A DNA stretch of 64,000 nucleotides from a plasmid: the sequence record NZ_CP118990.1; one strand, given 5' to 3'. This document shows positions 10,192-37,443 of this stretch, in pieces. Under the pieces are notes generated by a model that had not been told where the DNA came from, did not search any database, and worked only from the letters and a program-made list of their open reading frames with translations. Positions within the stretch are counted from its first letter, which is position 1. Every line of letters starts with the position of its first letter. Position numbers and translations under genes: made by a program.

Positions 10192-10554
10192 ATGACTAGC
10201 ACTAGCAAAGCTAACGGACCATTCCACCAGATCATTCGGGGGAAAGGTTGGACGCTGGTTGAGGTCGGCCTGCGCTGGGGGATTAAAGAACGGCAGATGA
10301 GCCGCATCGCAAACTCGGCAAAGCAAAGAGACCTTGATGCCGCCAACGGTCTACCGTTGAATGACAAAAATGCCTCAAAGATGGTGGGCGAGCCCATGCA
10401 CCAGCACATCCGGGGTAAAGGCTGGACGTTGACCGAGGTAGGAGAACGATGGGGCGTCGCTAAACGGCAAATGAGCCGCATCGTGAAGGCGGGCAAGCCA
10501 AAAGATCTTGATGCCGCAACCGGCTTGCCTCACCAAGACAAGTCAGCCAAGTGA
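10192..10554 (+). CDS. hypothetical protein made of two tandem about 55-aa repeats (possible HTH DNA-binding)
   Basis: IRGKGWTLVEVGLRWGIKERQMSRIANSAKQRDLDAANGLP is repeated as IRGKGWTLTEVGERWGVAKRQMSRIVKAGKPKDLDAATGLP. Confidence 0.4.
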   Translation: MTSTSKANGPFHQIIRGKGWTLVEVGLRWGIKERQMSRIANSAKQRDLDAANGLPLNDKNASKMVGEPMHQHIRGKGWTLTEVGERWGVAKRQMSRIVKAGKPKDLDAATGLPHQDKSAK

Positions 10555-10741: not shown

Positions 10742-11467
10742 ATGATGACATTGACCACTGTCGCCAAAAAGACATCCAACAACTCAGCCCTGGTATTCTG
10801 GCGCGTAGGTACGAAACGCAAGGGCATTCTGGACGTTCGCACGGACTTCGAGCATGAGGAATCTGACCTCCTCGCAGAGTTGATCGCGATTCGACACCTG
10901 GCATTGGATAAGCAGGTATTCTGCCGGGAGCCAGGCGCCGGAGCTGGTTACAAGCTGGTGGTTTCGAAAGGTGCGATCAAGAAACTAGCGTTGGGGAAAT
11001 CAAGTAAGGCATTCGCCGCTAAGTTTGCATCCTTCCTGACTGGCAGGATGCAGGGGGCCACTATTGAAGTGGCCCAAGGCATGGATTACATGGATGAGCC
11101 CGGTGAGAGTAACATCGAACTCCTTGATGTGGACAAGCAGGCATTCACTCAAACCTATGATGAGATCAATACACCTGCTATTGGCCCAGTGCTTGTAACT
11201 CAACATGCCCTCAGCCAATATCAAGCTAGGATCACATCTGGTGACCCCAAGAAACCTTGGGCTTCGCTTGTCGGCCGCCTCAAGCACCCGGAGCTACAGT
11301 TGCAACCATTCGATGAGAGGGTGGCCCGCCACAAAGCAATGAGGTATGGCCGCGTGGATAACGTGGAAGTCTGGGGGCACCGGGATTCTAAATTCAAATA
11401 TCTGATGGTCATCAATGACGATAATAAGAAGCGGGTATTGGTAACTGTATTTGAACGAAAGGAATAG
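10742..11467 (+). CDS. hypothetical protein (241 aa); its last 26 codons lie in direct repeat 1
   Basis: Clean ORF. The C-terminus YLMVINDDNKKRVLVTVFERKE looks like a RelE/ParE terminal strand, but the call is uncertain. Confidence 0.4.
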   Translation: MMTLTTVAKKTSNNSALVFWRVGTKRKGILDVRTDFEHEESDLLAELIAIRHLALDKQVFCREPGAGAGYKLVVSKGAIKKLALGKSSKAFAAKFASFLTGRMQGATIEVAQGMDYMDEPGESNIELLDVDKQAFTQTYDEINTPAIGPVLVTQHALSQYQARITSGDPKKPWASLVGRLKHPELQLQPFDERVARHKAMRYGRVDNVEVWGHRDSKFKYLMVINDDNKKRVLVTVFERKE

Positions 11468-11552
11468 TTGAGTAATTTGTCATATAGATCTTATTCTGCA
11501 AGGTGTAAAAAATCGGTGCCGACTAGGCAGTTATCGGACAGATCGCCTTGAA
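11389..11552. repeat. Direct repeat copy 1 (164 bp, identical to 14609-14772)
   Basis: Perfect 164-bp match read in the sequence. Confidence 0.9.
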
Positions 11553-11900
11553 TGTGGATAGTCGATGAACGATCTCCGGGTTGATAGGAGCGACGCAGGG
11601 TCTTGCCATCAACGGCAATCAATGCCCCATCCATCTGCTGCTGGATGGCCTGGGTCCAGCGAATGAATGCTGCCTGAAACTGCTCTGGCTGGATGCGGGA
11701 GATGATCCTGGCGATGGTGTCATGCACAGGAATACCATTTAGAAACAGTCCCTTATCTTGAAGCCATGCCAGATGGACCTCGCCAAAGTCTTCGATGTCC
11801 TCCCACCCCTGAGCGCCACCAATCACAGCGCAAACGGTCAGAAACAGGACATCGTAAAAGGGATAAGAGATTTTTGGATGATGTCACACTGGTGGTTTCA
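11553..11900 (-). pseudogene. ISAs1-family (H-repeat) transposase N-terminal remnant, fused to direct repeat 1
   Basis: GAQGWEDIEDFG...GIPVHDTIARI...AVDGKTLRRSY aligns with the intact ISAs1 Tnp at 62383 (GAEGWNDIETYG...GIPRRHTVARI...AFDGKVLRGSF). GTG start; stop 5 codons upstream; 3' part absent. Confidence 0.7.
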
Positions 11901-12437
11901 GAAGGGGATACGACGCAGATAGACCACATTGTCGTTGCTCCAACCGGAATATTTGTCGTCGAGACAAAGTTCTATAAAGGCCGGATTTATGGCAAGGAAT
12001 CAGACAAGCAGTGGACCCAGAAAATCTTCAAGAACACCTATAAGTTCCAGAACCCGTTTCGTCAGAACTACAAGCATGTGAAGGCTATTGAGGCACTTCT
12101 TCCCAACATTGGGTTGGCAAACATTCATTCCGTGGTTGTCATGCTCGGGGAATGTGAGTGGGCAAGCAAAGATCGACCAGCAGCTCTCTTCACTTCCGGG
12201 TGGAAAGCGGCGGACTACATTAACGACATGATTGCCAGTGGACAGAAGGTGCTCGATGTCGAAGAGGCCTCTGCGAGGCTCCAGAGTCTCAGGCTAAATG
12301 TTTCTCGAAAGGCTGGGCGCGGTGGTAGGACTATTGCAGAGGCAGTTAAAGAAGGTATTAATGTTCGTGTAATACAAGAATCTAATGGTGATATTGTTTC
12401 GGGTTTTCCAACAAACGTACCAAGGAATCCAAAATGA
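11766..12437 (+). CDS. NERD (nuclease-related domain) protein; 5' end replaced by the IS remnant
   Basis: DHIVVAPTGIFVVETKFYKG...QNPFRQNYKHVKAIEALLP NERD core. The N-terminal 40 codons overlap ISAs1-derived sequence. Confidence 0.5.
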   Translation: MPDGPRQSLRCPPTPERHQSQRKRSETGHRKRDKRFLDDVTLVVSEGDTTQIDHIVVAPTGIFVVETKFYKGRIYGKESDKQWTQKIFKNTYKFQNPFRQNYKHVKAIEALLPNIGLANIHSVVVMLGECEWASKDRPAALFTSGWKAADYINDMIASGQKVLDVEEASARLQSLRLNVSRKAGRGGRTIAEAVKEGINVRVIQESNGDIVSGFPTNVPRNPK

Positions 12438-12709
12438 AAAATGAATATAGAGAAATTGAATCCACGCTAGATCTTTTGCTTATGGTGCTGTCTGATTCGT
12501 TTTCTGAATCTGAAAGTATAGAAGTGCAAGAATTTATTGATGTGGGTGAGTATGGAATCGCACTAGAAACTATCATTGACATTATTAATGAAGAGTCAAA
12601 GAACATAACAAATGAAGCTGAGTTTCTGATTGAAAAAGCAGGGAGGATAATGAATATGGATACTGCATCCATTGTGGATAAGATTTCAAAACATATAGAT
12701 AAAGAATAA
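12434..12709 (+). CDS. small acidic protein, immunity-protein-like (91 aa)
   Basis: pI-acidic, low GC; adjacent to the Rhs tip and small membrane proteins. Confidence 0.35.
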   Translation: MKNEYREIESTLDLLLMVLSDSFSESESIEVQEFIDVGEYGIALETIIDIINEESKNITNEAEFLIEKAGRIMNMDTASIVDKISKHIDKE

Positions 12710-12710
12710 G

Positions 12711-12953
12711 ATGAAAAAAATCGGTTTAAAATATAGAGCAGTATATCTGCTTGGATTTCCGTTAGCTGGAGTCCTTATAGGGATTGCAGTGTTCGCTTTA
12801 TTCAACTATGTGAATGGGCCTCTAAGTAAATTCGCCTTATATCTGTCCGTTGGTGTTTGGGGGGGGTATGGAGTGTTCTCAGGAACCTATGGATACTTAA
12901 ATCTAAGGAAAATATTAAAGTTAAAGAGAGCTAATGAGGAATCCAAGGATTAA
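12711..12953 (+). CDS. small membrane protein (2 TM), immunity-like
   Basis: Hydrophobic helices; low-GC island. Confidence 0.3.
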   Translation: MKKIGLKYRAVYLLGFPLAGVLIGIAVFALFNYVNGPLSKFALYLSVGVWGGYGVFSGTYGYLNLRKILKLKRANEESKD

Positions 12954-13000
12954 TTACGGCTCACATGGTTCTGCTATTGGCGTAGCTTTGGGGACGGTTT

Positions 13001-13300
13001 ATGGAAATCAATAACTGGTTTGATTTTATTATATACACAATTTATTTCTTTGGGGTTGTGATAGTTATCCTTCCTACTGGGGTTATCTTTCTTTGGTTGA
13101 CATTGAAAAATCTTGTCAAAATGAGAACCCCGAGATACGAAATAAAGCACTACAAGTATTTCTCTGCAAGAAATATATTTGAAGTGTGTGTTGCAGGTGT
13201 TTTTTCTGTGGCTTTTTCTGTTTGGTATCTGTTTTTTGCCAAAGGGGGAAATCTGTTTCTTTATCCGTCAGAGGTAATGAGATTTTTTTCAGGCGGATGA
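13001..13300 (+). CDS. small membrane protein, immunity-like
   Basis: Hydrophobic helices. Confidence 0.3.
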   Translation: MEINNWFDFIIYTIYFFGVVIVILPTGVIFLWLTLKNLVKMRTPRYEIKHYKYFSARNIFEVCVAGVFSVAFSVWYLFFAKGGNLFLYPSEVMRFFSGG

Positions 13301-13348
13301 TAGTGTGGATCAGGCTCTGGCGTTGGCCCGGCCGCCGTCAGCGGCCAA

Positions 13349-13759
13349 GTGGTTTGGAAGGCGAGCTACAGCCCGTTCGGTAAGGCCAGCGTCACCACCC
13401 AGGGGCCAACCTTCAACCTGCGATTCCCAGGACAGTATTACGACGCGGAGACCGGGCTCCATTACAACTGGCATCGCTACTATGACCCAGCACTTGGCCG
13501 TTACTTACAATCAGACCGCCTTGGCCTGTTCGATGGGGTGGATACCTATGGGTATGTTCGCGCAAACCCTTTATCTGCCGGAGCGGCGGCTGGTGCGGGT
13601 ATAGCCAGCCTGCTTGGTCAAAGTGCTGGTCTATATGTTTCAGGAAAGGATGTTACTGATTACTGTAATTATGATTTTTCCGCTGTGGCTGGAGCTGCGC
13701 TGGGAGGGGCTTTAGGAGGACCTCTAGGAAGTACAATAGGGCGTTATATTAGCCCTTAG
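13349..13759 (+). CDS. Orphan Rhs C-terminal fragment: last YD repeats, RHS core-end motif, and a short glycine-zipper toxin tip
   Basis: [51 protein letters not shown] matches the RHS repeat-associated core (RYYDPxxGRYxxxDPIGLxGGxNxYxYVxNNP). Then a Gly-rich [11 protein letters not shown]...[13 protein letters not shown] tail. Confidence 0.65.
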
Positions 13760-13823
13760 CGCTTTACAATCATTGGACGTCCATTAAGTTCATCAGGGAT
13801 AAATAAAATTCCGGGAAATACTG

Positions 13824-14153
13824 TTGGCTCTGTGGTTGAAGGTGTTACCGTTGGCTCGGGTGAATTATTTGGTAAGGGGTTTTAATATGATGTGGATTGT
13901 TACGGCCATGTACTTTGTTGTTGTATCAGGTCTTTTATTAGTAGGGTTCGTTGTTTATGGGAAAACTCTATTTTTCCTGGGTAGGTCCGGTGCCTTTGCT
14001 AAATATGTGGGGGGGGGGGTATTGTTTACGTGTTGTTTGCGTGTGTATTGGTTGCACCGTTATTTATTGCTCCCGTGTTTATCAATGGGTGGCGTGAAGC
14101 TTTTAATTCTAATGTGGTTTATGCAGTTTATTTTATGGTGCTTTTTGTTTTAG
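13824..14153 (+). CDS. small polytopic membrane protein, candidate immunity protein for the Rhs tip
   Basis: Immediately downstream of the Rhs CT; 3 hydrophobic helices. Confidence 0.35.
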   Translation: MALWLKVLPLARVNYLVRGFNMMWIVTAMYFVVVSGLLLVGFVVYGKTLFFLGRSGAFAKYVGGGVLFTCCLRVYWLHRYLLLPCLSMGGVKLLILMWFMQFILWCFLF

Positions 14154-14282
14154 CAGCATTACCGGGTGGGCTGTATTTCAAAAAGAATTTCTTATCTCGT
14201 CTGAGAAGGCTTGGCTACTTTAAGAAAAGGCAGTATTGAGAACGGCTTGAAATATTGCCACCAGCGGTTAAGCCTGCTGGTG

Positions 14283-14608
14283 GCGTAGGGAAGGTGCGAA
14301 TAAGTCACCAAACATAAAAATGTGTGGGATGAAAATAAAGTTTCATCCTTGCAAATAAAGTGTCATCCCAACGGGATGAAAGCATTGATTTTGCTGGGCT
14401 GTAGCCGTTCTTACTGCTCAAATCACTGACTTTAGGATGAAACTTTAACCATCGTAGCGGGCTGGATCGCAACGTAATTTCTGGGTTTCAAGGCGGCGAA
14501 AGGATGAAACTTTATTTTCATCCAACAAAATGCGCCCTTGTAAGTATTTGAATTTAATGAACTAAATTTTTCTGTTTCGTTGTGGAGGGTGCTTATTCGC
14601 ACCCTCCA
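14283..14608. repeat. Non-coding palindromic module (MITE-like) with three GGATGAAA-N-TTTCATCC palindromes and a terminal inverted repeat GGTGCGAATAAG / CTTATTCGCACC
   Basis: Palindromes at 14329-14350, 14363-14381 and 14501-14522. The right end forms a GGAGGGTGCttattcGCACCCTCC hairpin. Confidence 0.5.
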
Positions 14609-14772
14609 TAAATTCAAATATCTGATGGTCATCAATGACGATAATAAGAAGCGGGTATTGGTAACTGTATTTGAACGAAAGGAATAGTTGAGTAATTTGT
14701 CATATAGATCTTATTCTGCAAGGTGTAAAAAATCGGTGCCGACTAGGCAGTTATCGGACAGATCGCCTTGAA
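14609..14772. repeat. Direct repeat copy 2 (164 bp)
   Basis: Identical to 11389-11552. Confidence 0.9.
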
Positions 14773-15253
14773 AAAGCAGAGTAGAGATCTCTTGCTCTGT
14801 AATTAAATTATTGCTTTTAAGAACATTTATTAAGGCTGTATCAGCAATATCGTGGAATCCCTCAATAAGGTCTTCCACCATTGCGGCAGCCTTTCGTTCT
14901 TCTTCGCTTTTCCCCATCGACCCGTCGCAGAGCCAATCTTCCACATTGCCGTATTGGGCAACGTAACTGAGTTGTTCGCACTCATGCGCAATCAGCCCAG
15001 TAACTCTCTCCATGAGTAGGTCATCGTAGGTGGGGAGTACCAGCACTGCGCCATGGCCTGGGATGTTGCGTTGGACCGTCGCCTCACTCTGAGGGCTACT
15101 TTTGAGCCATGAGAAGGCCCAAAGACCAGAACCGATCTTTTCAAGAAATATGCCTCGCTCGGAGAAGAAATCGGAGACATTTTTGAAGATGGTGCCACCT
15201 GGAGCGGCCATCGAATAGATGGATGCCATTAGCTCATCCTGACTCATGTACAT
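14711..15253 (-). CDS. hypothetical protein (180 aa), convergent partner of the gene at 10742
   Basis: Clean ORF. Its last 19 codons (QGDLSDNCLVGTDFLHLAE) are duplicated in repeat copy 1, where they are fused to the ISAs1 remnant. Confidence 0.45.
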   Translation of the reverse strand: MYMSQDELMASIYSMAAPGGTIFKNVSDFFSERGIFLEKIGSGLWAFSWLKSSPQSEATVQRNIPGHGAVLVLPTYDDLLMERVTGLIAHECEQLSYVAQYGNVEDWLCDGSMGKSEEERKAAAMVEDLIEGFHDIADTALINVLKSNNLITEQEISTLLFQGDLSDNCLVGTDFLHLAE

Positions 15254-15496
15254 TCACACACACCTCTTGACTTGTTAATTTGTTTGTATAAGCGACCATC
15301 ACCGGGTCGATAATAAATCACGATCCTTGTACTAGACTTGTATAAGCAAAGATTGTACCAGTAGTACGGATTTCGAGTTAGGTTGCACAGTAAACTACCC
15401 GACAGACTATGACTGATAAAATTAAACTGCATCAGATTTTAGTCTATTCGATTGTAGACTGCTGAAAAGAGGATTAGCTCAAAGTGCGGGGGGAAC

Positions 15497-15543
15497 TTAA
15501 ATGGCTCATTGCGCTGAGTGTTTCTACACAATGAGCCATTTAA
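15497..15543. promoter_or_regulatory. 15-bp perfect inverted repeat TTAAATGGCTCATTG...CAATGAGCCATTTAA with a 17-nt loop, downstream of csf2
   Basis: Read directly. It is preceded by GCGGGGGGAACTTAAATGG, which resembles the CRISPR repeat 3' part. Confidence 0.4.
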
Positions 15544-15644
15544 TTGACCCTCTACAAGGGGAGGGAGTGACTGTTGGGGCTTTGAAGAGGCACCTAAGAC
15601 AATAGGCGTAAACCGCCAACTATTGGGCGGAAGCGACACGTCTG

Positions 15645-16676
15645 TCAGGCGTCTTTCTTTACCTTGTGGAAGGAGCTGGTGACGTCGTTGCGCCAAGCGT
15701 CATAGGCTAGGTGCAGCACTTCTCCCTCAACCCGGAACCCTTCACCATCAAATTCGATCTTACCAATAGTCACTGGGCTCAGTGCCTTCGGCGGCCAAGT
15801 CTTCACATCCCAAGAGCCGGATACCAAACCGCAGTTATGAGCTTGGTGTCCGCCCATGCGGGGGGAACGAGCGAATTCTAACAAAGCAGCAATGAAAAAG
15901 CCCAGTTCGATCTGACTGACTGACTTGAGGGACATGCGGTGCTCCATCACTGTACCGGCGCAGATCGCCTCGTATTGGTCGATGGGGCGACGTATAGACT
16001 CCCGAGCCTCCCCCTTCTGATCTTTGCGATCTTGGATTTGTGCGTCCAATGCCGCGAGCTGGTCAAACAACACCCTTTTCTCGTCGTTCGGAGCCGTTTT
16101 CAACTGTTTTTTCAGCTCTTTTTGCTTGTCCTTCAATACTCCGACGTCGGCGGAGGCAAGGGTCTGCTCTTCCAAAATGGTTTGGAGCCGGTTTCTTTCC
16201 GACTGATCCAGTGTTTCGAGGAGCTCCGGGGAGCGTTCAAACATGATGGTGCGAGCACCACCACCAAACATGGCCGTTGCATTGGCCGTGATGGGGAAGC
16301 CGTTCCCTATGTTAGCTTTTGATGGAAGCCCCCATATGCCGAAGAGACTCAGCATCGGGTTGCCTTCGCGCAAGTGTCGATCAGAGTTCACCTCGTCGTC
16401 GGCAGGGGCAGAAATATCTCCCACAATGTCTACCCCTTGGGCCAACATGAAATGCTCTGCCAGGTCAAATGGTGGGCGTTGATTGTCTTCATTGAACATC
16501 AACACAACCCGGTGCGCAGCATGGCGCAATGAACCACGGGTAGTCGTTGCAGGCCAATAAGCTGGGGCATCGAACCCGCCATTACGTGGCAGGCGGCCCT
16601 GGGTGTTTTTTATGGTGACGGTCAAGGGCTCAACTGCGGTCAGGTGGCCGTCGAAAACAAAGGTACTTTGAGTCAT
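15645..16676 (-). CDS. csf2: Type IV-A Cas7 (Csf2)
   Basis: 343 aa. Last gene of the dinG-containing cas operon. Gly-rich FGGGARTI loop; size and position fit Csf2. Confidence 0.6.
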   Translation of the reverse strand: MTQSTFVFDGHLTAVEPLTVTIKNTQGRLPRNGGFDAPAYWPATTTRGSLRHAAHRVVLMFNEDNQRPPFDLAEHFMLAQGVDIVGDISAPADDEVNSDRHLREGNPMLSLFGIWGLPSKANIGNGFPITANATAMFGGGARTIMFERSPELLETLDQSERNRLQTILEEQTLASADVGVLKDKQKELKKQLKTAPNDEKRVLFDQLAALDAQIQDRKDQKGEARESIRRPIDQYEAICAGTVMEHRMSLKSVSQIELGFFIAALLEFARSPRMGGHQAHNCGLVSGSWDVKTWPPKALSPVTIGKIEFDGEGFRVEGEVLHLAYDAWRNDVTSSFHKVKKDA

Positions 16677-16694
16677 GGAAATTCCTTGTTGATG

Positions 16695-17393
16695 TTAAAT
16701 CAGCTGGTGAAGCATTTCAGAACGGACCCTTTGGGGGGCGACAATGGGCATTTTTTCTTTTGAGTAATACGGAGGGAGCAGTGGCGATAGGCCTGGTACC
16801 CCATCGATCCCGGATGATACCGGGAGTGGTCGATTAGCCTTATCCAACAGGATAAGGCTGGCATCTTCCTGCATGGGGGTGATGATCAGATTATCAAAGG
16901 CTCCCATCTGGCAGTTCTGAGCGTCGTAACCTAAGCCCAGAACGAAAAAATCCAGCAACCCCTTTATCAGGTAGGGATTCCCCAATCCATCGAACACTGC
17001 AAAAGGGGCTTGGTAAGCGGGCATCTCCCGCAAGCGTCGTTTGGTCGGTCCTCCCTTGAGCTTGATCTTCACATAGCGTCCTTTGCCGTTGGGGGCAAAC
17101 ATCGCCGGAGATAGTTTCTCGGGAGTATGCCGATCTGCTCTGACGTAGCTGCCGACAGTCAAGCCAACGGCCATCGTGACACCGAATCTCATTGCCGAGG
17201 CATGGAAGACACCAAGTTGGTCGTTATAGAGAAGGTAGTTGCTCATTTCCTGCAAGAGTTCTTCCCTGCTGGCAAGTGGGGAGCGCTGGCTCAGAGCCTC
17301 AAAAACCAAAGCATCAAGAGTTGGGGGGTAGTCAGTTAATACCACCGGGGTCTTTAACGACATGACCAGGCGAAAGGGTTCAAATTCGAACAT
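16695..17393 (-). CDS. csf3: Type IV-A Cas5 (Csf3)
   Basis: 232 aa. Stop/start overlap with dinG; size and position fit Csf3. Confidence 0.55.
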   Translation of the reverse strand: MFEFEPFRLVMSLKTPVVLTDYPPTLDALVFEALSQRSPLASREELLQEMSNYLLYNDQLGVFHASAMRFGVTMAVGLTVGSYVRADRHTPEKLSPAMFAPNGKGRYVKIKLKGGPTKRRLREMPAYQAPFAVFDGLGNPYLIKGLLDFFVLGLGYDAQNCQMGAFDNLIITPMQEDASLILLDKANRPLPVSSGIDGVPGLSPLLPPYYSKEKMPIVAPQRVRSEMLHQLI

Positions 17394-19342
17394 CAGAAGT
17401 AAACCTCCAATGGAGTTGCAGGTGATTGCTCGCCGTCAGTTAACAGCCCTTTGGCCTGCCGGTACTGTTGCAGAAACCGAACGGGAATGATGTTTCGCAG
17501 GATGGCGTGTTTGGACGACAAATCGTGAGACAGTGGGAAACGGGGATCGAGAATATCGACTTCAATGCAATCGTCAGGTGAACGGATCCCGCGGCCAATG
17601 GCTTGTCGCATCAACCGAATAACGGCGTTTTGAGTACGCATATACTCCTGCTTGTAGAGCTGTTTACTCAGGTCAGTCTTCTTGGTCTTCTTGTAGAAAC
17701 TTACCAACGCTTCGACTTCGGAAGTGCGTGGTTGGCCGTAGGCAATTCGAGTGATCATCAGGCGATCGAATCCAACTGAGCCAGCGTCATCGGTGATATT
17801 GAGCCCGGTATGGCCCGCAGCGGTGATCATTACTCCCCGGCCATGATGTCTGCATACCTTCTTGAACTCTTCAATCAATGATTTGAGTGGGGTGCCACGC
17901 TGGTGGACCAGCACCTGCCGATGCTCAATTTGAGCCAAAACTGCGGCCAATTTACGGCTCTCTTCATGTGAAGCTGTCAGCACAACCACCCGTCCGCATC
18001 GGTTGGTGATCTGATGTGCGACTGCTTGCAACCATTTTTCAGAAAGGGCAGGGGCATTCCCCTCAGAGGACGGTCTTGAGTAGATAGCCGGGAACGAGGG
18101 GCCCGCCAGAGTCAGGGTCATGCTCCCATATTTTTTCGGGGAGAAAAGGGCAATGGCGCCGAGCATGGTGTCATCAATACCAAGTTCCATTCGCAACGAA
18201 GTGGTACCATTCACTGGCTCAGGCGTGATACTCAGTGTGCCGGAGGTGAGGAGAACAGACTCAAAAGCTGAGGTCGCGTATTTCCCGAAGAACCGAACAA
18301 ACCACGGGGAGAGTGAGACGATGGCCGGTTCCCGGCGTATCAGTGAAACGCCGATCCCCATGGACGAGGTTTGCATCATCAGGAGCTGCTGCTGCAAAGA
18401 TGTTGAGACATCCTTATCCAGGTTATTCAACCGGCAAATCTTCTCGATCTTTCCAATGGTGGCCCGCGCCAGTTCCGCCAGCTCGGTATCCCAGGCATAT
18501 TGCTGCATCCCCAGCCGCTCTTGGATTGTCTTAATTGAATTAGCAAGAGGGGCTAATTGCCGAGCTGATAGTTGCTCGCCCAACTGGGAGGCGACACGAA
18601 CAAGATTCAGGCGCCGCTGAGTCCATTCTTGCAACCGATTCACCAGGGCATCAGCTTCATCAACAATCAGCACTGTCGGCCGTGACTTATCGGCCAAAAG
18701 CGCATTATTTCGCAGCATGTCTACTGCGATCATGGCATGAGTTGTGACCACGATGTCGCATTTAGATTCAGCCTGTTGCTGTTCGTCAAATGCCTCATTT
18801 TCACACTCAGCCGTCAGGCAAATTTGAGAGGCCAACAAGTCGCAGGGGAGTCCGCCAAACTCATCCTCAAATTCTGCAATCGTCCCTGACCAGTCACGCA
18901 AAGTAGCCACTTCGCGCTCCTCTAGGGCTGACAGAGAGCGGTTGGTGAGGGCAATATTGATCCGCTTTGGCGATACGAAATTGACCCGTCCGAGAAGACG
19001 GCCGATAGACAACGGTCTATGTCCATAATGACGGGCGACTTTGGTCAGCAGCACACTGTCTTTTTCGAGAAGTTGTTGCATCAGTGCGTGGCTGTGTGTT
19101 GCGACGATAACCCGAGGGCGACGTGGGTCGCAGAGTGCAAACTGCATGGCTGGCAAGAGATAGCCCAGCGACTTTCCGAGGCCGGTGTCAGCGTGAAGAA
19201 GCGATATTTTCCCGGTGTCAGCCAGCACTTGCTCAATCATTAGCGCATATTGGGTCTGCTCATCCCGAGCGATGAGGCCGCCAGCGGCCATCAGCTCTCC
19301 GAACTTGGCTGTGTGGATCCCGTCCTCTGGCAAGGGGCTCAT
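17393..19342 (-). CDS. dinG: CRISPR-associated DinG-family helicase (Csf4)
   Basis: Walker A HADTGLGKSLGYLLPA and DEAD box VLIVDEADALV, typical of Rad3/XPD/DinG SF2 helicases. 649 aa. Confidence 0.8.
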   Translation of the reverse strand: MSPLPEDGIHTAKFGELMAAGGLIARDEQTQYALMIEQVLADTGKISLLHADTGLGKSLGYLLPAMQFALCDPRRPRVIVATHSHALMQQLLEKDSVLLTKVARHYGHRPLSIGRLLGRVNFVSPKRINIALTNRSLSALEEREVATLRDWSGTIAEFEDEFGGLPCDLLASQICLTAECENEAFDEQQQAESKCDIVVTTHAMIAVDMLRNNALLADKSRPTVLIVDEADALVNRLQEWTQRRLNLVRVASQLGEQLSARQLAPLANSIKTIQERLGMQQYAWDTELAELARATIGKIEKICRLNNLDKDVSTSLQQQLLMMQTSSMGIGVSLIRREPAIVSLSPWFVRFFGKYATSAFESVLLTSGTLSITPEPVNGTTSLRMELGIDDTMLGAIALFSPKKYGSMTLTLAGPSFPAIYSRPSSEGNAPALSEKWLQAVAHQITNRCGRVVVLTASHEESRKLAAVLAQIEHRQVLVHQRGTPLKSLIEEFKKVCRHHGRGVMITAAGHTGLNITDDAGSVGFDRLMITRIAYGQPRTSEVEALVSFYKKTKKTDLSKQLYKQEYMRTQNAVIRLMRQAIGRGIRSPDDCIEVDILDPRFPLSHDLSSKHAILRNIIPVRFLQQYRQAKGLLTDGEQSPATPLEVYF

Positions 19343-19911
19343 AACACCTCCAGGTTCGACAACTGGCCGTAGCCAAATACCCGCTTACGGCCAATGCCAT
19401 AAACAACAGCCTGCTCGGCCAGCGCAACATCCTTGATCTCAGCAACGACACTGACCGGGTTGCACTGGAGGGTGAAGCTCTGTTTTTTCTTGAGGTAGCG
19501 CTCCAGGTAGGGGCTGTTGGCTGAGTGGCTCTGGAGCGAGAGTCCTGCCCCTTCGCACTGCCTGGCTAGAACATCAGGCAAGATGGCCATCGGCAGATTC
19601 ATCGACCGTTTTTTGGTGGTGCCTGGGATCGGATGCTTGATTGGGAAGCAGAAGTTGAGGTTGAACATGACTGCATCTGCCACGTTCAGTTCAAGTTGTA
19701 CGGCTTGTTCGCCAGCTAGGCCAAGTTGCGTTGCCGATCGCAAGTAGATAACGGTTGTGTTGGGCTCATGAGGGTGAGCAATCCGCCGCCAGCTATAGGG
19801 GACTTTACAGCGCAATGTCTCCTGTACCAAATAATCAAGACGCTGGTGGACCAGATACGGAAGAGACGGGTCAGTTTCACGCAGTTTGAGGGTGTTTTCA
19901 TAGTAAATCAT
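19339..19911 (-). CDS. cas6: Cas6 endoribonuclease (Csf5 / Cas6e-like)
   Basis: 190 aa. C-terminal Gly-rich loop GIGRKRVFGYGQL (GxGxxxxxGxG signature of Cas6). Overlaps dinG and csf1. Confidence 0.65.
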   Translation of the reverse strand: MIYYENTLKLRETDPSLPYLVHQRLDYLVQETLRCKVPYSWRRIAHPHEPNTTVIYLRSATQLGLAGEQAVQLELNVADAVMFNLNFCFPIKHPIPGTTKKRSMNLPMAILPDVLARQCEGAGLSLQSHSANSPYLERYLKKKQSFTLQCNPVSVVAEIKDVALAEQAVVYGIGRKRVFGYGQLSNLEVL

Positions 19912-20744
19912 TGGAGCTTGTCCGCGATGTGAATCAGCTTGAGGCGCTGGTGGGGGTCCGCCGGTAAAGTGCGAAATATCGTGCCGAACGATGGTTTTTT
20001 GCTGATCTGTTCACTGGCCTGCTGGGGGGTAATGCGTCCGTTCGAGAGGCCAACGACTAACTTATTGAAGGCGTTGCGTTCCTGACTTGTTAGTGTGTTG
20101 AGCCCCCCTGATAGCCGCATGGCCGCATCCAGATTAACCGTGCATTCGACTCGGGTAACTGAATCCATACCGGCGTCACTACAGCAGTAGAGCGCCTGCG
20201 GTGACAGAGATATGGTCAACCCTCGCATAAGCGCCGCGGTTTTACGTCCGAAAGATTCGATGTATAGCAGAGGGAATTTTGCATTCTCTGCGATCCATGG
20301 CAGGTGACCACCAACGGTAATCTTCACCACATCGACGTGCTCTAAAAATGATGCAGGGAACTTGTCATACACCCCTGGTGGGGCTAGGAGCGTTGAACGC
20401 TGAGGCTTACCTGGGACATCTGCAATTTCGTGCACCCAACCGACACCACTCATCATTCCAAAGCGCTGGCCCACCTTCTTGTCGCTTTTCCCGGCAGTTC
20501 GCTCATTACCCATGATGTTGGGGTCGGTCACAAACATGGCCTGGCAAGGAGCACAGTGGTTGAACGGCGTTTTATAGCTATCCAGACCTTGATAACCCAC
20601 ACGGTCAAACGAGCTTGCAGGGCGCTTGCAGCAAGAACATGCCGCACCAGTCTTTACAGCTTCTCCCAAGGCTGGAGCCAAAATATGGGTGAGGTTGGCA
20701 TAAAGAAGATCAATTGGATGTTGCACGTCACCTCCGAGAAACAT
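19908..20744 (-). CDS. csf1: Type IV-A Cas8-like large subunit (Csf1) with a zinc finger
   Basis: 278 aa. First gene of the operon. CSCCKRP...HCAPC treble-clef-like Cys cluster. Confidence 0.55.
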   Translation of the reverse strand: MFLGGDVQHPIDLLYANLTHILAPALGEAVKTGAACSCCKRPASSFDRVGYQGLDSYKTPFNHCAPCQAMFVTDPNIMGNERTAGKSDKKVGQRFGMMSGVGWVHEIADVPGKPQRSTLLAPPGVYDKFPASFLEHVDVVKITVGGHLPWIAENAKFPLLYIESFGRKTAALMRGLTISLSPQALYCCSDAGMDSVTRVECTVNLDAAMRLSGGLNTLTSQERNAFNKLVVGLSNGRITPQQASEQISKKPSFGTIFRTLPADPHQRLKLIHIADKLQ

Positions 20745-20864: not shown

Positions 20865-20891
20865 ATGCCGCCCTTTGGCGGGGGTTAGCGG
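20865..20891 (+). repeat. Degenerate CRISPR-repeat-like sequence A (TGCCGCCCTTTGGCGGGGGTTAGCGG) in the cas promoter region
   Basis: Shares the hairpin plus GGGGGTTAACGG 3' part with the array repeats at 23890-24584; same orientation. Confidence 0.5.
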
Positions 20892-20936
20892 TTTGAGCCA
20901 GCGCAAAAACAAGCCAGAGCAGAGCCATGCTGGAGT

Positions 20937-20963
20937 GCCTCCCAGTGGCGGGGGTTAACAGAT
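20937..20963 (+). repeat. Degenerate CRISPR-repeat-like sequence B (GTGCCTCCCAGTGGCGGGGGTTAACAG)
   Basis: As for A. The two are separated by a 45-nt spacer-like segment. Confidence 0.45.
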
Positions 20964-23889: not shown

Positions 23890-24584
23890 TCGCCCCCCCG
23901 CAGGTGGGGGTTAACGGGCGTGTAAAGCGTCCAACGTGACTTACAGAAAATCGCCCCCCCGCAGGTGGGGGTTAACGGAGTGGATGCATTTGCTGACTTC
24001 CACCGATGAATCGTCCCCCGTGCCTGGGGGTTAACGGTACTCGGCCTGGCACAACATGGACCTCACCCGATTTCTCCCCCGCAGCTGGGGGTTAACGCCG
24101 CGAGGGGAGCTGTTGCTATAGCGGGAATGAATCCCCCACCGCAGGCGGGGGTTAACGGCGTCAGCACATCACACAGCTATTGAGCACCAGATCGATCCCC
24201 CGCAGGCGGGGGTTAACGGTTTTCGATGATGTCGGTGGCGTTTGCCATCATATCGCCCCCCGCAGGCGGGGGTTAACGGACGCTGATAACGCATATCGAC
24301 GACGGATTTGAATCACCCCCCCGCAGGCGGGGGTTAACGGCCCGCGGGATAGAGAAGTGGTGCCATCAGCGCATCTCTCCCCCGAGCCTGGGGGTTAACG
24401 GTGCCCTTTTTGTGCACAAACAAAAAAATCAAAATCCATCCCCCTGTTACGGGGGTTAACGAAGCGGGACGTCGTGGTGCTGTGCTGCGGCTGCATCTCC
24501 CCCCAGCAGGCGGGGGTTAACGTTAGCTTCACACCAGGCCTTGATAGCATCGCCGATCTATCCCTCGCGACTGGGGGTTATCGG
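23890..24584 (+). CRISPR. CRISPR array: 12 repeats of about 28 nt (consensus about TCGCCCCCCGCAGGCGGGGGTTAACGG) and 11 spacers of 32-37 nt. The degenerate terminal repeat is at the 3' end.
   Basis: Period about 61 bp. Spacers are unique. The conserved GGGGGTTAACGG 3' handle and C5-7/G5 stem resemble type I-E/IV-A repeat architecture. The last repeat is TCCCTCGCGACTGGGGGTTATCGG. Confidence 0.85.
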
Positions 24585-28464: not shown

Positions 28465-28602
28465 TGACATGACGGGATAAGCAAGGTGGGCCGTTGAAAA
28501 CGGCCATATCCGGGGTTTGGGGAGCAATGGAACCAAAAACCAACGTAAGCTCTGAATCCCACCGTAAAGGGGCTTTCCGATCTCCAGCTCACCCGCCAGG
28601 CA

Positions 28603-29004
28603 TTACTCTCTGATCAGTGCCTCGATGATCGGGCAGATCGTTCCGCCGTCTCCCGCATCACATTGCTGCACCAGTTCGCCTAACAGTTGCTGCATGACGA
28701 CCAAGTCGGCCATCTTCTGCTCGATCAACGCGAGCTTGCGTGCAGCCCGTGCTCGCGTTTCGGCACAGGCGCACGACTCATCCAGCGTCAGCAGTCCACC
28801 GACTTCCGAGAGCGTGAAACCCAGCGCCTGAGCCCGCTTGATGAAACGCAGTCGCTTCACCATGTCCACCGGATAGCGCCGATGGCCACCCAAGGGTTTG
28901 GCTGGTTCATCCAGCAGCCCGCGTCGCTGGTAGTAGCGGATCGTCTCGACGTTCACCCCGGCGGCGTCTGCCAGCTTGCCAATGGTCAGCTCTGTGGCCA
29001 TCAC
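28603..29004 (-). CDS. merR: MerR-family mercury-responsive regulator (copy 1, divergent from merT)
   Basis: N-terminal [28 protein letters not shown]. Cys residues C...CDAGDGGTICP. Divergent from merT and merP. Confidence 0.8.
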   Translation of the reverse strand: MMATELTIGKLADAAGVNVETIRYYQRRGLLDEPAKPLGGHRRYPVDMVKRLRFIKRAQALGFTLSEVGGLLTLDESCACAETRARAARKLALIEQKMADLVVMQQLLGELVQQCDAGDGGTICPIIEALIRE

Positions 29005-29069
29005 TTTCTCCTTGATTCCGTACTTTGGTACGGAGTTTAGAATAGCACCTAGGCAATCAGGCTCAGGAG

Positions 29070-29426
29070 ATGGGAATGGGGATGCAACTCACCGGGAAAG
29101 GCTCGCTGGTCGCGAGTTCGCTGACCGCCATCGGTGCGTCGGTGTGCTGTGTCGGGCCACTGGTGCTGTTGGCACTCGGTGTCGGCGGTACGTGGGTGGG
29201 CGCTCTGACCATGATGGAGCCACTACGCCCCCTCTTCATCGGGTTGACTCTACTGTTCCTGGGATTGGCATTCCGCAAGCTCTACCTGGTGCCACAGGTT
29301 TGTACGCCAGGTACACCCTGCGCCGATCCGCGCACGCTCGTGCGACAGCGACTCGTGTTCTGGATCGTCAGCGTGCTGCTGCTCGGCCTATTGGCCGTGC
29401 CGTGGCTCGCCCCGCTGTTCTACTGA
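29070..29426 (+). CDS. merT: Mercuric transport protein MerT (copy 1)
   Basis: 3-TM protein with a CCxGP (VCCVGPLVLLALG) first-helix Cys pair and a second Cys pair in the loop. Confidence 0.8.
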   Translation: MGMGMQLTGKGSLVASSLTAIGASVCCVGPLVLLALGVGGTWVGALTMMEPLRPLFIGLTLLFLGLAFRKLYLVPQVCTPGTPCADPRTLVRQRLVFWIVSVLLLGLLAVPWLAPLFY

Positions 29427-29438
29427 AGGAGATTAACC

Positions 29439-29714
29439 ATGCGCAAACTGCTGATCGCCGTGCTTTTCGCCTTGCCCTTCGTGGCGCTGGCGGCTCCCCC
29501 GAAAACCGTCACGCTCGACGTGCAGAACATGACGTGCGGACTCTGTCCGATCACGGTCAAGAAGTCGCTGGAGAAGGTGTCCGGCGTGAGTGACGTCCAG
29601 GTCAATTTCGACCAGAAGACGGCGACCGTCACCTACGATCCCGATAAGGCCCAGCCCGAGGCACTGACTGAGGCGACCGCGAACGCGGGATACCCCTCCA
29701 CAGTGCAGAAGTGA
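29439..29714 (+). CDS. merP: Periplasmic mercury-binding protein MerP (copy 1)
   Basis: Signal peptide plus HMA motif GMTCGLCP. Confidence 0.85.
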   Translation: MRKLLIAVLFALPFVALAAPPKTVTLDVQNMTCGLCPITVKKSLEKVSGVSDVQVNFDQKTATVTYDPDKAQPEALTEATANAGYPSTVQK

Positions 29715-29721
29715 GGTCACG

Positions 29722-29934
29722 ATGAGCGCCATTGTCCTTGAGTCCGTGCTGACTTGCCCGCGCTGCGGCTTCGCCAAGCCGGAAACCATGCCCACGGACG
29801 CCTGCCAGTTCTATTACGAGTGCAGCAACTGCAAGGCGCTGCTGCGCCCCAACCCAGGGGATTGCTGCGTTTTCTGTTCGTTCGGCTCGGTGAAGTGCCC
29901 GCCGATCCAGCAGCAGCTTGGGTGTTGCTCATAG
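29722..29934 (+). CDS. Cysteine-rich 70-aa protein (10 Cys) at the position where merA is expected
   Basis: CPRCG..C..C..C..CCVFCSFGSVKCP. It ends 7 nt before the transposon IR. Confidence 0.4.
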   Translation: MSAIVLESVLTCPRCGFAKPETMPTDACQFYYECSNCKALLRPNPGDCCVFCSFGSVKCPPIQQQLGCCS

Positions 29935-29946
29935 CGTTTAGGGGGA

Positions 29947-32940: not shown

Positions 32941-32943
32941 TGA

Positions 32944-33354
32944 TCACAGCACCTCGACGCAGAACACGGCGGGCGTGACGATCCGCGTGCGTTCGATGTG
33001 CCCGCGTTGCAGCAGGCCGGCGCGGCGATCACCGGTTATCAGGTAGTCCGCATCGCCCGCCAAGGCCATGGCCAGCAAAAACGAGTCATCCGGATCATCG
33101 GCTTCGACCTCGATGGTCAGGCGCTCCAGTACCACAGCCCGTTGCAGGTTATTGATCATGGCGCCCACCTTGGCGGGCTGTAGGATGGCCTGAAGCTTGG
33201 GATAGCGGCTGGCTCGACGAATTTCATCGAGTTGCATCCGCGAGGTCACCACCTCGAAACGCGCCGCCCGCCAGGCACGGTAGATCGCATCGGGCGCGCC
33301 ATGTGGCGAGATCAGGGCGCTGAACAGGATGTTGGTATCCAACACGACCCGCAT
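32944..33354 (-). CDS. PIN-domain toxin (VapC-like) of a transposon-borne toxin-antitoxin pair
   Basis: VLDTNIL...D..D acidic residues of the PIN fold. Its start abuts the antitoxin stop. Confidence 0.65.
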   Translation of the reverse strand: MRVVLDTNILFSALISPHGAPDAIYRAWRAARFEVVTSRMQLDEIRRASRYPKLQAILQPAKVGAMINNLQRAVVLERLTIEVEADDPDDSFLLAMALAGDADYLITGDRRAGLLQRGHIERTRIVTPAVFCVEVL

Positions 33355-33593
33355 CAGCGCTTACGTGCCCAGTCGAGCGCTTCGTCAACCGCGTTGGTCA
33401 ATTCTGCCTCACTCAGATGGGCGTTAGCGGCCTTGGCCTGCTCAGCGCTCAGCTCCAGGATGTGTGCCCGTACCGCTTCTTCGATGAAGCGCGACAGGTC
33501 GCCCTTACGGCCGCCGCCCTGGCTGGCCAGAAACATCCGAAGCGACTGGTCGGTGTCGGCCGAGACGGCGACATTCCAGCGAATGGTATTCAT
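33354..33593 (-). CDS. Ribbon-helix-helix antitoxin
   Basis: 79 aa, upstream of and overlapping the PIN gene. Lies between tnpA and the res/tnpR region, as in toxin-antitoxin-carrying Tn3-family elements. Confidence 0.55.
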   Translation of the reverse strand: MNTIRWNVAVSADTDQSLRMFLASQGGGRKGDLSRFIEEAVRAHILELSAEQAKAANAHLSEAELTNAVDEALDWARKR

Positions 33594-33690
33594 AGCGTTC
33601 TCCGCTAATAGGTGTTTGTGTGTTTATACGCCAATCACAAAGGGCGATGCAATGGTTCGACAAAACGAACGTATATGTGACAGGTACGAC

Positions 33691-34305
33691 ATGCTGATAG
33701 GCTACATGCGGGTATCGAAGGCGGACGGCTCCCAGGCTACCGATTTGCAGCGCGACGCGCTGATTGCCGCCGGGGTCGATCCAGTACATCTTTACGAGGA
33801 CCAGGCATCCGGCATGCGCGAGGATCGGCCCGGCTTGACGAGCTGCCTGAAGGCGTTGCGAACTGGCGACACACTGGTCGTGTGGAAACTGGATCGGCTC
33901 GGACGCGACCTGCGACATCTCATCAACACCGTGCACGACCTGACTGGGCGCGGCATCGGCTTGAAGGTATTAACCGGGCACGGCGCGGCCATCGACACCA
34001 CGACCGCCGCCGGCAAGCTGGTCTTTGGCATCTTCGCCGCCCTGGCCGAGTTCGAGCGCGAGTTGATCGCGGAGCGCACGATTGCCGGCCTAGCCTCGGC
34101 CCGCGCGCGCGGGCGGAAAGGCGGCCGGCCGTTCAAGATGACCGCCGCCAAGCTGCGGCTGGCGATGGCGGCAATGGGTCAGCCAGAGACCAAGGTCGGC
34201 GACCTGTGCCAGGAACTTGGCGTCACGCGGCAGACCCTGTATCGGCATGTTTCACCCAAGGGTGAGCTACGTCCAGATGGCGAGAAGCTACTCAGCCGAA
34301 TTTGA
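33691..34305 (+). CDS. tnpR: Serine recombinase / resolvase TnpR
   Basis: MLIGYMRVSKADGSQATDLQRDAL contains the catalytic Ser region; C-terminal HTH. Confidence 0.85.
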   Translation: MLIGYMRVSKADGSQATDLQRDALIAAGVDPVHLYEDQASGMREDRPGLTSCLKALRTGDTLVVWKLDRLGRDLRHLINTVHDLTGRGIGLKVLTGHGAAIDTTTAAGKLVFGIFAALAEFERELIAERTIAGLASARARGRKGGRPFKMTAAKLRLAMAAMGQPETKVGDLCQELGVTRQTLYRHVSPKGELRPDGEKLLSRI

Positions 34306-34357
34306 TGCCGGCATGAGGCAACGTAGCGACAGCGTGGTTTGTCTCAATGGGAAGCGC

Positions 34358-34594
34358 TCATGATCGACCTCTGAAGGCCCGCAGCAGCCGCGTCACAGAC
34401 AGGACAAACAAGCCGGTCAGCGTGAGGGCTGCAATACCCCAGTGCTCGCCGATGAACGCGCCGGCCGTCGTGCCGGCCAGCACAATGGCGAGAATCGGCA
34501 AATGACAGGGACAGGTGAGCACCGCCAGCGCACCCCACAGGTAGCCGGTGAACGGCTTGTGTGTCTCGGTCGGCAAGCGCTCGGGGCTGTTCAT
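34358..34594 (-). CDS. merE: MerE
   Basis: 78 aa with [14 protein letters not shown], characteristic of MerE. Confidence 0.85.
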
Positions 34595-34956
34595 GGCAGA
34601 CTCTCCGCTTGCTGGGCCGGCGCGGTCGGCATCGCGGCCAACTGCACTTCCAGATCGGCCAACGCTTCGCGTCGGCGTTCGACGAACTGACTCAGCACGG
34701 CAAGCTGTGCGGCTGTTTCATCGCAGTCCGCCGCATCCAGCGCCCGGCACAACCGCGCCAATGCGTCCAGGCCGATGCCCGCCTCAAAAGCGGCCCGCAC
34801 AAAGCACAGCCGCTGCAAGGCGGCGTCATCGAACAAGCCGTAGCCGCCCGTGGTGCAGGCGACTGGCCGCAGCAATCCGCGCAGCAGGTAGTCGCGCACG
34901 ATATGCACGCTCACCCCGGCCTCAAGGGCCAGTCGGGACACTGTGTAGGCGTTCAT
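34591..34956 (-). CDS. merD: MerD co-regulator
   Basis: MerR-like [32 protein letters not shown]; 121 aa. Confidence 0.85.
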
Positions 34957-34973
34957 CGAACACCTCCTTTTCC

Positions 34974-36722
<1,749 letters not shown>

Positions 36723-36730
36723 TCAGTGCC

Positions 36731-37006
36731 TCACTTCTTGACGCTGGACGGATAGCCTGCGTCTTCGGTGGCCTTGGTCAGCTTCTGCACGCTGGTCTTG
36801 GCATCATCGAAGGTGACAACCGCTTCGCGTGTCTCGAAGGTCACGTTAACTTTGCTGACGCCTTCGACCTTGGAAATCGCCTTCTTGACGGTGATCGGAC
36901 AAGCGGAGCAGGTCATGCCCGGTACGGACAGCGTGACGGTCTGGGTGGCGGCCCACACGGGGGCAACAACGGCAGCGATGGCGAGAGAGGCAAACAGTTT
37001 TTTCAT
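36731..37006 (-). CDS. merP: MerP (copy 2)
   Basis: GMTCSACP HMA motif; signal peptide. Confidence 0.9.
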   Translation of the reverse strand: MKKLFASLAIAAVVAPVWAATQTVTLSVPGMTCSACPITVKKAISKVEGVSKVNVTFETREAVVTFDDAKTSVQKLTKATEDAGYPSSVKK

Positions 37007-37021
37007 GATGAACTCCTGTGA

Positions 37022-37372: not shown

Positions 37373-37443
37373 ACGCTTGTCCTTTCAAATCTGGATTGGA
37401 TAGCTTAAGCTTACTTCCGTACCAATGTACGGAGTCAAGCGAT

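Follow-up and report, generated by a model that had tools for sequence, protein, structure and literature searches.

The stretch analysed here (the window) comprises 64,000 nucleotides (nt) of a plasmid (sequence record NZ_CP118990.1) and carries, in a backbone resembling that of the Aeromonas plasmid pAsa4, an island of about 3 kb built around the end of an Rhs toxin gene. From left to right the island holds a transposase fragment of an ISAs1-family insertion sequence (IS), an internal fragment of a NERD gene, the last codons of an EndoU-type Rhs toxin, an intact immunity gene of the MafI family, two genes for membrane proteins of 80 and 99 amino acids (aa), an orphan Rhs core end with a damaged glycine-zipper (Gly-zipper) tip, a frameshifted gene for a 116-aa membrane protein and two nested miniature inverted-repeat transposable elements (MITEs). 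It lies between two backbone genes, for proteins of 241 and 180 aa, and is bordered by two copies of a 164-bp direct repeat (Table 1); its true right edge is at 14608, and not at 14153 as in the original prediction. Read against its relatives, the island is very probably the eroded remnant of a polymorphic-toxin locus, the rhs locus of IncA/C-family plasmids, with residual orphan immunity as its most likely function.

Table 1 Features of the island and its borders (positions in the window)
Feature	Position	Strand	Remarks
Backbone gene, 241 aa (left flank)	10742-11467	+	
Direct repeat, copy 1, 164 bp	11389-11552		164/164 identical to copy 2
Whole island	11553-14608		
ISAs1-family transposase fragment, including 5' end	11553-~11871	-	Open reading frame (ORF) 11491-11826; NF033564 profile positions 9-100 of 314
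NERD internal fragment	11872-12295	+	Codons 66-208 of 227; PF08378 E 6.6e-27, positions 17-110 of 111
EndoU-type Rhs toxin end, last 47 codons	12296-12437	+	46/46 residues identical to the IncC Rhs C-terminus (tblastn)
MafI-family immunity gene, intact, 91 aa, pI 4.2	12434-12709	+	NF033691 E 5.9e-18, 64.5 bits against a cutoff of 31, positions 1-67 of 67
Basic membrane protein, 80 aa, always after MafI	12711-12953	+	Hydrophobic segment; G8 tract 12859-12866; no family match
Membrane protein, 99 aa	13001-13300	+	Two hydrophobic segments; no family match
Orphan Rhs core end and damaged Gly-zipper tip	13332-13885	+	ORF 13349-13759; TIGR03696 positions 1-69 of 76
Three-helix membrane immunity gene of the Gly-zipper tip, 116 aa	13887-14239	+	Frameshifted, +2, in G11 tract 14009-14019
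Outer IS5-like MITE	14289-14607		Terminal repeats GGAAGGTGCGAATAAG; ~110 bp if uninterrupted; split by the inner MITE
Inner MITE, 205 bp	14323-14527		28-bp terminal inverted repeats; nested in the outer MITE
Direct repeat, copy 2, 164 bp	14609-14772		Continuous with the intact 180-aa gene
Backbone gene, 180 aa, intact (right flank)	14711-15253	-	

Profile searches confirmed the observation on which the original prediction was built. The Rhs core end is clearly recognised (TIGR03696 Rhs_assc_core, E 6.1e-22, 77.9 bits against a cutoff of 32.5; the last 75 positions of NF041261 RHS_core match as well), and the absence of an Rhs body holds too: tblastn with two full-length plasmid Rhs proteins against the whole 64 kb recovered only the remnants at 13337-13882 and 12297-12434, with no upstream shell of YD repeats and, in any frame, no rhs gene continuing upstream. 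The pipeline of NCBI names parts of the island as RHS repeat-associated core domain-containing protein and nuclease-related domain-containing protein, and the 91-aa counterpart on related plasmids is already annotated as MafI family immunity protein. No Pfam or NCBIfam family was found for the 80-aa, 99-aa and 116-aa proteins or for either backbone gene. An Rfam scan of 11000-15600 with E up to 1 gave nothing but a chance microRNA match outside the island, and a promoter and terminator scan was uninformative, with fewer promoter-like sites in the region than in shuffled sequence.

The position of the island in the backbone proved informative. In pAsa4 of Aeromonas salmonicida the 241-aa and 180-aa genes are adjacent and convergent without an island between them, and removing 11553-14772 makes the window collinear with pAsa4 at 81% nt identity. 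The corresponding interval of IncC plasmids, and of IncA-like plasmids of Vibrio rumoiensis, Enterobacter hormaechei and Shewanella profunda, contains a full-length rhs gene of ~4.2 kb, after which come immunity genes and then orphan modules (comparison loci are labelled L001, L002 and so on, with L010 for Escherichia coli pHS1496_KPC and L012 for Klebsiella quasipneumoniae GCA_032739995.1). The flanking 241-aa gene shares 76% nt identity with the gene left of rhs in L001 and L002, and the 180-aa protein is 45% identical to a 200-aa protein right of the IncC locus. By these flanks, the island evidently occupies the backbone position of the IncA/C-family rhs locus, between the 241-aa gene and the gene for the 180-200-aa protein. 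Its contents agree with this placement: the segments of the island are each 96-99% homologous to rhs loci of IncC and IncA-like plasmids, and 12296-13366 is collinear with IncC at 97.8% nt identity, a stretch that spans the EndoU tip end, the MafI, 80-aa and 99-aa genes and the start of the next core-end motif.

In IncC (IncA/C2) plasmids rhs1 and rhs2 are standard typing markers, and forms truncated by insertion sequences or resistance islands are common (PMC6872532, PMC9709138). The window shares with this locus the backbone interval and the collinear stretch, and the IS-mediated truncation of rhs reported there (PMC6872532, PMC9709138) is a further likeness. It differs in its pAsa4-like backbone, in the loss of nearly all of rhs, in the NERD gene that precedes it, as in IncA-like Vibrio and Shewanella plasmids, in retaining an orphan Gly-zipper module that IncC has lost, and in the 164-bp duplication, which is absent from IncC. 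A main rhs gene with an array of orphans is also known from enterobacteria (PMC3150448; Koskiniemi et al. 2014, as cited in PMC4287609), where likewise the orphan starts inside the core end, its own immunity gene follows and orphan immunity genes can outlive their toxins; unlike those arrays, the locus in the window is plasmid-borne, its main gene is deleted, and its orphan is internally deleted and truncated and hence not re-usable. The island is therefore a known kind of locus, an unusually eroded example of the rhs main-plus-orphan arrangement, and not a new system.

At the left end, the NERD gene had been described as 5'-truncated, which is correct as far as it goes; its 3' end is missing as well and is fused to the EndoU Rhs remnant. 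In L002, L004, L009 and L014 a NERD gene precedes rhs, and the fragment in the window shares 96-97% nt identity with it. The fragment is without the N-terminal membrane anchor (codons 1-65) and without the last 19 codons (209-227), with foreign sequence in their place, so that no complete NERD gene is present. The junction at 12295/12296 is in frame and creates a NERD'-'EndoU chimeric ORF (11766-12437, plus strand). Compared with the relatives, ~4.3 kb are missing at this point, namely the end of NERD, a spacer and nearly all of rhs, and the junction is the deletion scar of the main rhs gene. Little of the toxin is left behind: the EndoU_bacteria domain (PF14436) covers residues 1308-1377 of the intact 1384-aa IncC Rhs protein, and the window keeps only residue ~1338 onward. 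In the IncC Rhs protein WP_014342219 the EndoU part makes up about the last 150 residues.

The predicted ISAs1 fragment at the island edge was recovered with two models (NF033564, E 2.2e-30; PF13808, E 3.5e-17) and has 78% nt identity to ISKpn31 over 11552-11883. It is broken internally at 11553, the junction with the repeat, while its 5' end is inserted in the NERD gene, at a boundary known to within ~12 nt. The stretch of profile covered (Table 1) leaves no room for a full ISAs1 element with a DDE-domain transposase and two terminal inverted repeats. Hill and co-workers reportedly described H-rpt elements, which belong to the ISAs1 family, inside classical Rhs elements of E. coli in the 1990s, an association to which the original prediction had likened this one. 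An ISAs1-family remnant does lie at the edge of an rhs locus here, but the layout is unlike that of the classical elements: a single insertion interrupted the upstream NERD gene and was itself cut by a deletion, and it is no regular component downstream of the core extension. Insertions at this locus have occurred elsewhere too. E. coli pHS1496_KPC carries an independent ISKpn9 (ISAs1 family) in the region of the 99-aa gene (L010 6949-8076), its IncC rhs locus being otherwise intact, which makes a second case of ISAs1-family insertion in this locus. The K. quasipneumoniae copy has an extra IS1634-like element (L012 4186-5910) in the NERD'-'EndoU chimera, at the equivalent of 12344-12349 in the window, with a 538-aa DUF4277 and DDE_Tnp_1 transposase and a 6-bp AGTTAA duplication.

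The small acidic protein noted in the original prediction proved to be the MafI protein. Its start codon and the stop codon of the chimeric ORF, and hence of the EndoU remnant, overlap, and a ribosome-binding site, AAGGA, lies 7 nt before the ATG. Exactly this protein directly follows full-length EndoU Rhs genes (1417-1420 aa) in L013, L014, L016 and L019, and 89 of its first 91 positions match the 90-aa IncC copy, than which it is one residue longer. Because identical MafI proteins sit after EndoU Rhs genes and an EndoU remnant precedes the gene here, we tie the acidic protein to the EndoU toxin and not to the Gly-zipper tip: MafI is evidently the cognate immunity protein of a second, deleted Rhs toxin. 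MafI of Neisseria blocks a MafB EndoU RNase (PMC4287609). The likeness to MafB-MafI lies in a MafI score above the family cutoff and in a partner toxin that, on related plasmids, has an EndoU_bacteria domain; unlike in Neisseria, the carrier of the toxin is an Rhs shell and not MafB, and in the window no more than the last 47 codons of that toxin are kept. The two genes that follow are similarly close to their IncC counterparts, the 80-aa product at 75 of 81 and the 99-aa product at 97 of 100 aligned positions, stops included, and paralogues of the 99-aa protein end each toxin-immunity module in related arrays (L002, L009). The four small membrane proteins counted earlier thus reduce to three genes, since the 116-aa gene is frameshifted into two of the ORFs.

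We then turn to the orphan module itself (13332-14288). In undamaged form it supplies the main tip of full-length Rhs proteins, which are encoded, together with the 116-aa partner, on plasmids of Vibrio sp. YMD68 (WP_282389565, partner WP_069541863), V. rumoiensis, S. profunda and E. hormaechei (pN069_1); examples of the full-length gene lie at L003 4543-8694 and L009 1791-5999. Against the intact tips of L002, L003, L004 and L009, the copy in the window has two lesions. A 159-nt in-frame deletion at 13573/13574 removes 53 codons (RLIDPTGEYGLAGAAYGLISGGIGGYISGGWQGALAGAGTGALVGFVNIFGAH), and with them the RLIDPTGE/DPTGE self-cleavage motif and the first Gly zipper; where intact relatives read RANPLRLIDPTGEYGL across the boundary of core and tip, the window reads RANPL followed directly by SAGAAAG, and no DPxG-type self-cleavage site remains. 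Further on, TAG stands for TAT at 13757-13759, which leaves the last 41 codons (13760-13885) untranslated. The 60-aa glycine-zipper tail of the original prediction is present, then, but as the product of these two changes in a toxin domain of ~150 aa. The immunity gene of the tip is also present but broken: its frameshift yields overlapping hydrophobic ORFs (13824-14153 and 14030-14239), whereas the protein is intact in L002, L003, L004, L009 and L012. An orphan tip and immunity island on a plasmid, as originally proposed, does exist, with a dead tip and a frameshifted immunity gene for that tip.

For the intact tip, sequence searches gave little to compare it with. Gly-zipper Pfam models match below threshold only and no curated family does; phmmer against all PDB chain sequences (E up to 10) returned two chance-level matches, neither of them Tse5; and a large protein search yielded no more than 19 relatives, every one a short Rhs-associated fragment without an assigned function. 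The tip consists of Gly and Ala to 39%, with many small-xxx-small repeats and no enzymatic domain. In Tse5-Tsi5 of Pseudomonas aeruginosa a pore-forming tip, encapsulated by its Rhs shell, has a membrane protein for its immunity partner (PMC9637101, PMC10684867). The Gly/Ala-rich tip without enzymatic domain and its three-helix membrane partner resemble this pair, while the PDB search places the tip apart from it, with no detectable similarity to any chain, the Tse5 C-terminal toxin included. The composition, the repeats, the membrane partner and the likeness to Tse5-Tsi5 together suggest that the intact Gly-zipper tip may be a membrane-depolarising toxin. The tips also seem to have been exchanged within the family: in V. 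rumoiensis the Gly-zipper is the main tip, with MafI as an orphan, and here the main tip was EndoU.

The orphan modules of the related arrays show a common architecture. Every one begins at one 27-nt motif, GCCAGCGGCCAAGTGGTTTGGAAGGCG, the start of the Rhs core-end domain (L002 8473-8541, 12671-12739 and 13229-13297; several sites in L004; L001 8694; 13305-13357 in the window). In orphans an inverted repeat, CTGGCGTTGG-N5-6-CAACGCCAG, stands in front of the motif; its stem is conserved and its loop varies. In some modules the motif is joined straight to the start of an immunity gene, the toxin having been precisely removed. We considered this hairpin as a site for the recombinase RecHS and rejected it, as RecHS IR2 (TCTACTTATTAAAA-TGTATC-TTTGAAAAAGTAGA in L001) is unrelated.

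The right end of the island is formed by the MITEs. The terminal repeats of the outer one, GGAAGGTGCGAATAAG, are what we take to be an IS5 end. Uninterrupted copies of it occur in L006 and L008, with target site duplications CTAG and CTAA, respectively. In the window its inverted repeats are present and its flanks are unlike, GTAG and ATAA, without the 4-bp YTAR duplication of the other copies; since the flanks differ, one of them has evidently been exchanged. On the right it borders directly on repeat copy 2, the point of contact being a CTAA-type IS5 target within the 241-aa gene (natively CTAA, at 11388-11391; ATAA in the island copy). The inner MITE is bordered by a 5-bp AAATG target duplication (14318-14322 and 14528-14532) and does not differ from a copy in A. 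hydrophila pMCR5_045096 (100% identity). A 351-nt query containing both elements matched 300 plasmid records in all, mainly from Aeromonas and Enterobacterales, at up to 15 places per record, and the pMCR5_045096 record at five.

These comparisons trace a course of erosion. Judged from the relatives, the ancestral order would have been NERD, the main rhs gene with its EndoU tip, MafI, the 80-aa and 99-aa genes, the orphan Gly-zipper tip and the 116-aa immunity gene. An ISAs1-family element entered NERD and was later truncated; the ~4.3-kb deletion took the rest of NERD and nearly all of rhs, leaving the in-frame chimera; the orphan tip lost its 53 codons and acquired its stop codon; the tract in the 116-aa immunity gene slipped from G9 to G11; and the two MITEs inserted at the right end. 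The alignments show these lesions directly. Because the EndoU remnant is without most of its domain and the tip is deleted, truncated, without a shell and without a start context, neither toxin can be made. Immunity is another matter. MafI would neutralise an EndoU RNase delivered by a neighbouring cell, and in sister copies with a G9 tract the 116-aa protein would counter a membrane-acting Gly-zipper toxin. For their expression these genes would depend on transcripts that read through from the 241-aa gene and on translation coupled to that of the chimeric ORF. The original interpretation, immunity to a chromosomal toxin, is partly supported: the cognate toxins we found are on IncA/C-family plasmids, and a chromosomal toxin is neither needed nor excluded.

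Several points weigh against a functional remnant. Expression of MafI is putative, and a consensus scan found no promoter-like site upstream of the gene, in a region that falls below shuffled sequence in such sites. Substitutions relative to IncC are too few to show purifying selection, with one synonymous and one non-synonymous in MafI and three and six, respectively, in the 80-aa gene. In the K. quasipneumoniae copy another IS sits shortly before MafI and the 80-aa gene is frameshifted, which fits ongoing neutral decay. A literature search found no paper on how plasmid Rhs toxins are delivered.

It is quite possible, then, that the island is pure genetic debris, with nothing expressed or selected, which hitchhikes on a successful plasmid. 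Five separate inactivating lesions, the missing promoter-like site, a sister copy with still more IS and frameshift damage and the existence of island-free plasmids would all follow from this. It accounts less readily for the three small ORFs, MafI among them, that are intact despite heavy erosion, for a MafI protein identical to copies paired with live toxins, and for an island kept in at least three hosts of two genera. Between residual orphan immunity against the Rhs toxins of related plasmids and pure debris the balance appears about even.

To explore how the island came to be where it is, we compared the repeats with sister plasmids. In the repeat unit the final 79 nt of the 241-aa gene and the final 62 nt of the 180-aa gene are separated by a spacer of 23 nt. 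As it contains the 3' ends of both backbone genes and the spacer, each gene stays whole on its own side of the island. The 164-bp segment is single-copy in pAsa4 and in the empty-site siblings L020 and L022. An exact-protein look-up found the same island with the same repeats in Aeromonas sp. QDB54 (GCA_027707385.1; two differences in 6.4 kb) and, with an extra IS, in K. quasipneumoniae (GCA_032739995.1), and protein names suggest a third copy on a plasmid of Aeromonas allosaccharophila. Empty sites are represented by assemblies of the public runs SRR28201386 and SRR13003751, which carry the same backbone without the island and with one 164-bp copy; their flanks agree with the window at 100.000% identity, on the longer contig over 1,817 nt on one side and 7,392 nt on the other. 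Because the island is present in some plasmids and absent from others with 100% identical flanks, it was evidently gained or lost as one discrete unit. The simplest route of loss would be RecA-dependent homologous recombination between the repeats, and the duplication may have arisen by Campbell-type entry of a circle, or through a cointegrate or dimer intermediate followed by deletion. A transposon target duplication we rejected: 164 bp is far too long, the left junction lies in a dead IS, and the IncC and V. rumoiensis loci are without the repeat. The two junctions are of different kinds. The right one looks like a joint made by a transposase, because an exact MITE end meets a CTAA-type site with unlike flanks, and the left one is evidently illegitimate, because it falls inside the dead ISAs1 gene.

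These observations bear on a second alternative, in which the 3.2-kb unit of island and one repeat circles out and re-enters empty sites, or is moved by an IS5-family transposase acting on the MITE end, and so spreads immunity as a mobile cassette. Perfect flanking repeats, presence and absence on 100% identical backbones and a MITE whose end coincides with the repeat boundary, at a CTAA-type site and between the unlike flanks GTAG and ATAA, would be expected of such a unit. However, the left junction is in a dead IS and not at the end of an element, and one insertion followed by simple repeat-mediated deletions explains the pattern equally well. The island encodes no transposase, and ORF and family scans and comparison with RecHS IR2 found in it neither a recombinase nor junctions resembling a RecHS site, as an att-site cassette would have. 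An exact-pattern scan of genome and metagenome contigs gave no match to the repeat/ISAs1 junction, so that this sequence occurs in no other genome or metagenome contig scanned, and a scan of metagenome contigs likewise gave none to the 159-nt deletion junction. We consider such a cassette doubtful.

The poly-G tracts raise a third alternative, namely that the 116-aa and 80-aa genes are switched on and off by contingency tracts as phase-variable immunity genes. The only G runs of at least 8 in the window are the two that fall in these genes (Table 1), and near-identical copies of the island differ in them. The in-frame G9 tract of the 116-aa gene is shared by V. rumoiensis, E. hormaechei, S. 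profunda and K. quasipneumoniae, whereas Vibrio sp. YMD68 has G8, Aeromonas sp. QDB54 has G10 and the window has G11; in the 80-aa gene the tract is G8, in frame, everywhere except K. quasipneumoniae (L012), where G9 causes a frameshift. The variation could also be slippage under relaxed selection or homopolymer sequencing error. The latter is a simple alternative, and all copies paired with live toxins are in frame, which means that changes appear only under relaxed selection. To our knowledge, contingency tracts are not established in Aeromonas or enterobacterial plasmids, and we count this against phase variation too, which we hold to be improbable. The same low probability attaches to a combination of the two ideas, a recombination-driven immunity cassette plugged in and out against rival IncA/C-family Rhs toxins and switched by its poly-G tracts; were it true, it would amount to a plasmid-versus-plasmid toxin defence with its own mechanism of variation. 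Least credible of all, and very unlikely, is a functional store of spare toxin tips kept for recombination with a full-length rhs gene on plasmid or chromosome, the process shown to switch the deployed toxin for orphan Rhs modules of Salmonella: core-end homology to main rhs genes does remain in the orphan, over 242 nt (13332-13573) and at 82-97% identity, and both tip orders in related plasmids imply that tips were swapped in this family, but the recombinant toxin would be without the DPTGE motif, the first Gly zipper and the last 41 residues, the immunity gene of the tip is frameshifted, and there is no rhs gene within 64 kb. With the eroded rhs remnant as the preferred account, only two points of the island stand out, and these mildly: the 164-bp repeat, for which there are matching empty-site plasmids, and the G tracts of varying length.

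Several features of the surrounding plasmid were recorded in passing. A type IV-A CRISPR-Cas operon adjoins the island on the minus strand (15645-20744) and encodes Csf2 (343 aa), Csf3 (232 aa), a DinG-like helicase (649 aa), a Cas6-like protein (190 aa) and a 278-aa protein. Two degenerate CRISPR repeat-like copies lie beside it (20866-20957), and the CRISPR array itself (~23890-24520; at least 10 repeats, period 60-61, repeat core CCCCCGCAGGCGGGGGTTAACGG) is found ~3 kb from the operon, past a tyrosine recombinase gene. On the other side of the island, a 120-aa ORF (10192-10554) contains an internal 125-nt direct repeat (10225-10349 and 10399-10523; 73% identity, spacing 174) and thus encodes a domain of ~58 aa twice. 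Further away, at ~28500-38000, lies a Tn3-family mercury-resistance transposon with merR, merA, merD, a resolvase, a transposase and a PIN toxin; many plasmids of Pseudomonas, Aeromonas and Klebsiella carry copies of it with 96% identity.

Taken as the remnant of an IncA/C-family rhs locus, the island displays the course of decay of such a locus, and it indicates that, on a plasmid moving between Aeromonas and Klebsiella, an immunity gene can survive the loss of its toxin. It also points to an uncharacterised Gly-zipper Rhs toxin and its membrane immunity partner, intact copies of which are found on Vibrio, Shewanella and Enterobacter plasmids. If MafI is expressed, it would shield carrier cells against the EndoU Rhs toxin encoded by IncC plasmids, which are clinically widespread; this would make the island a small piece of plasmid-plasmid competition.

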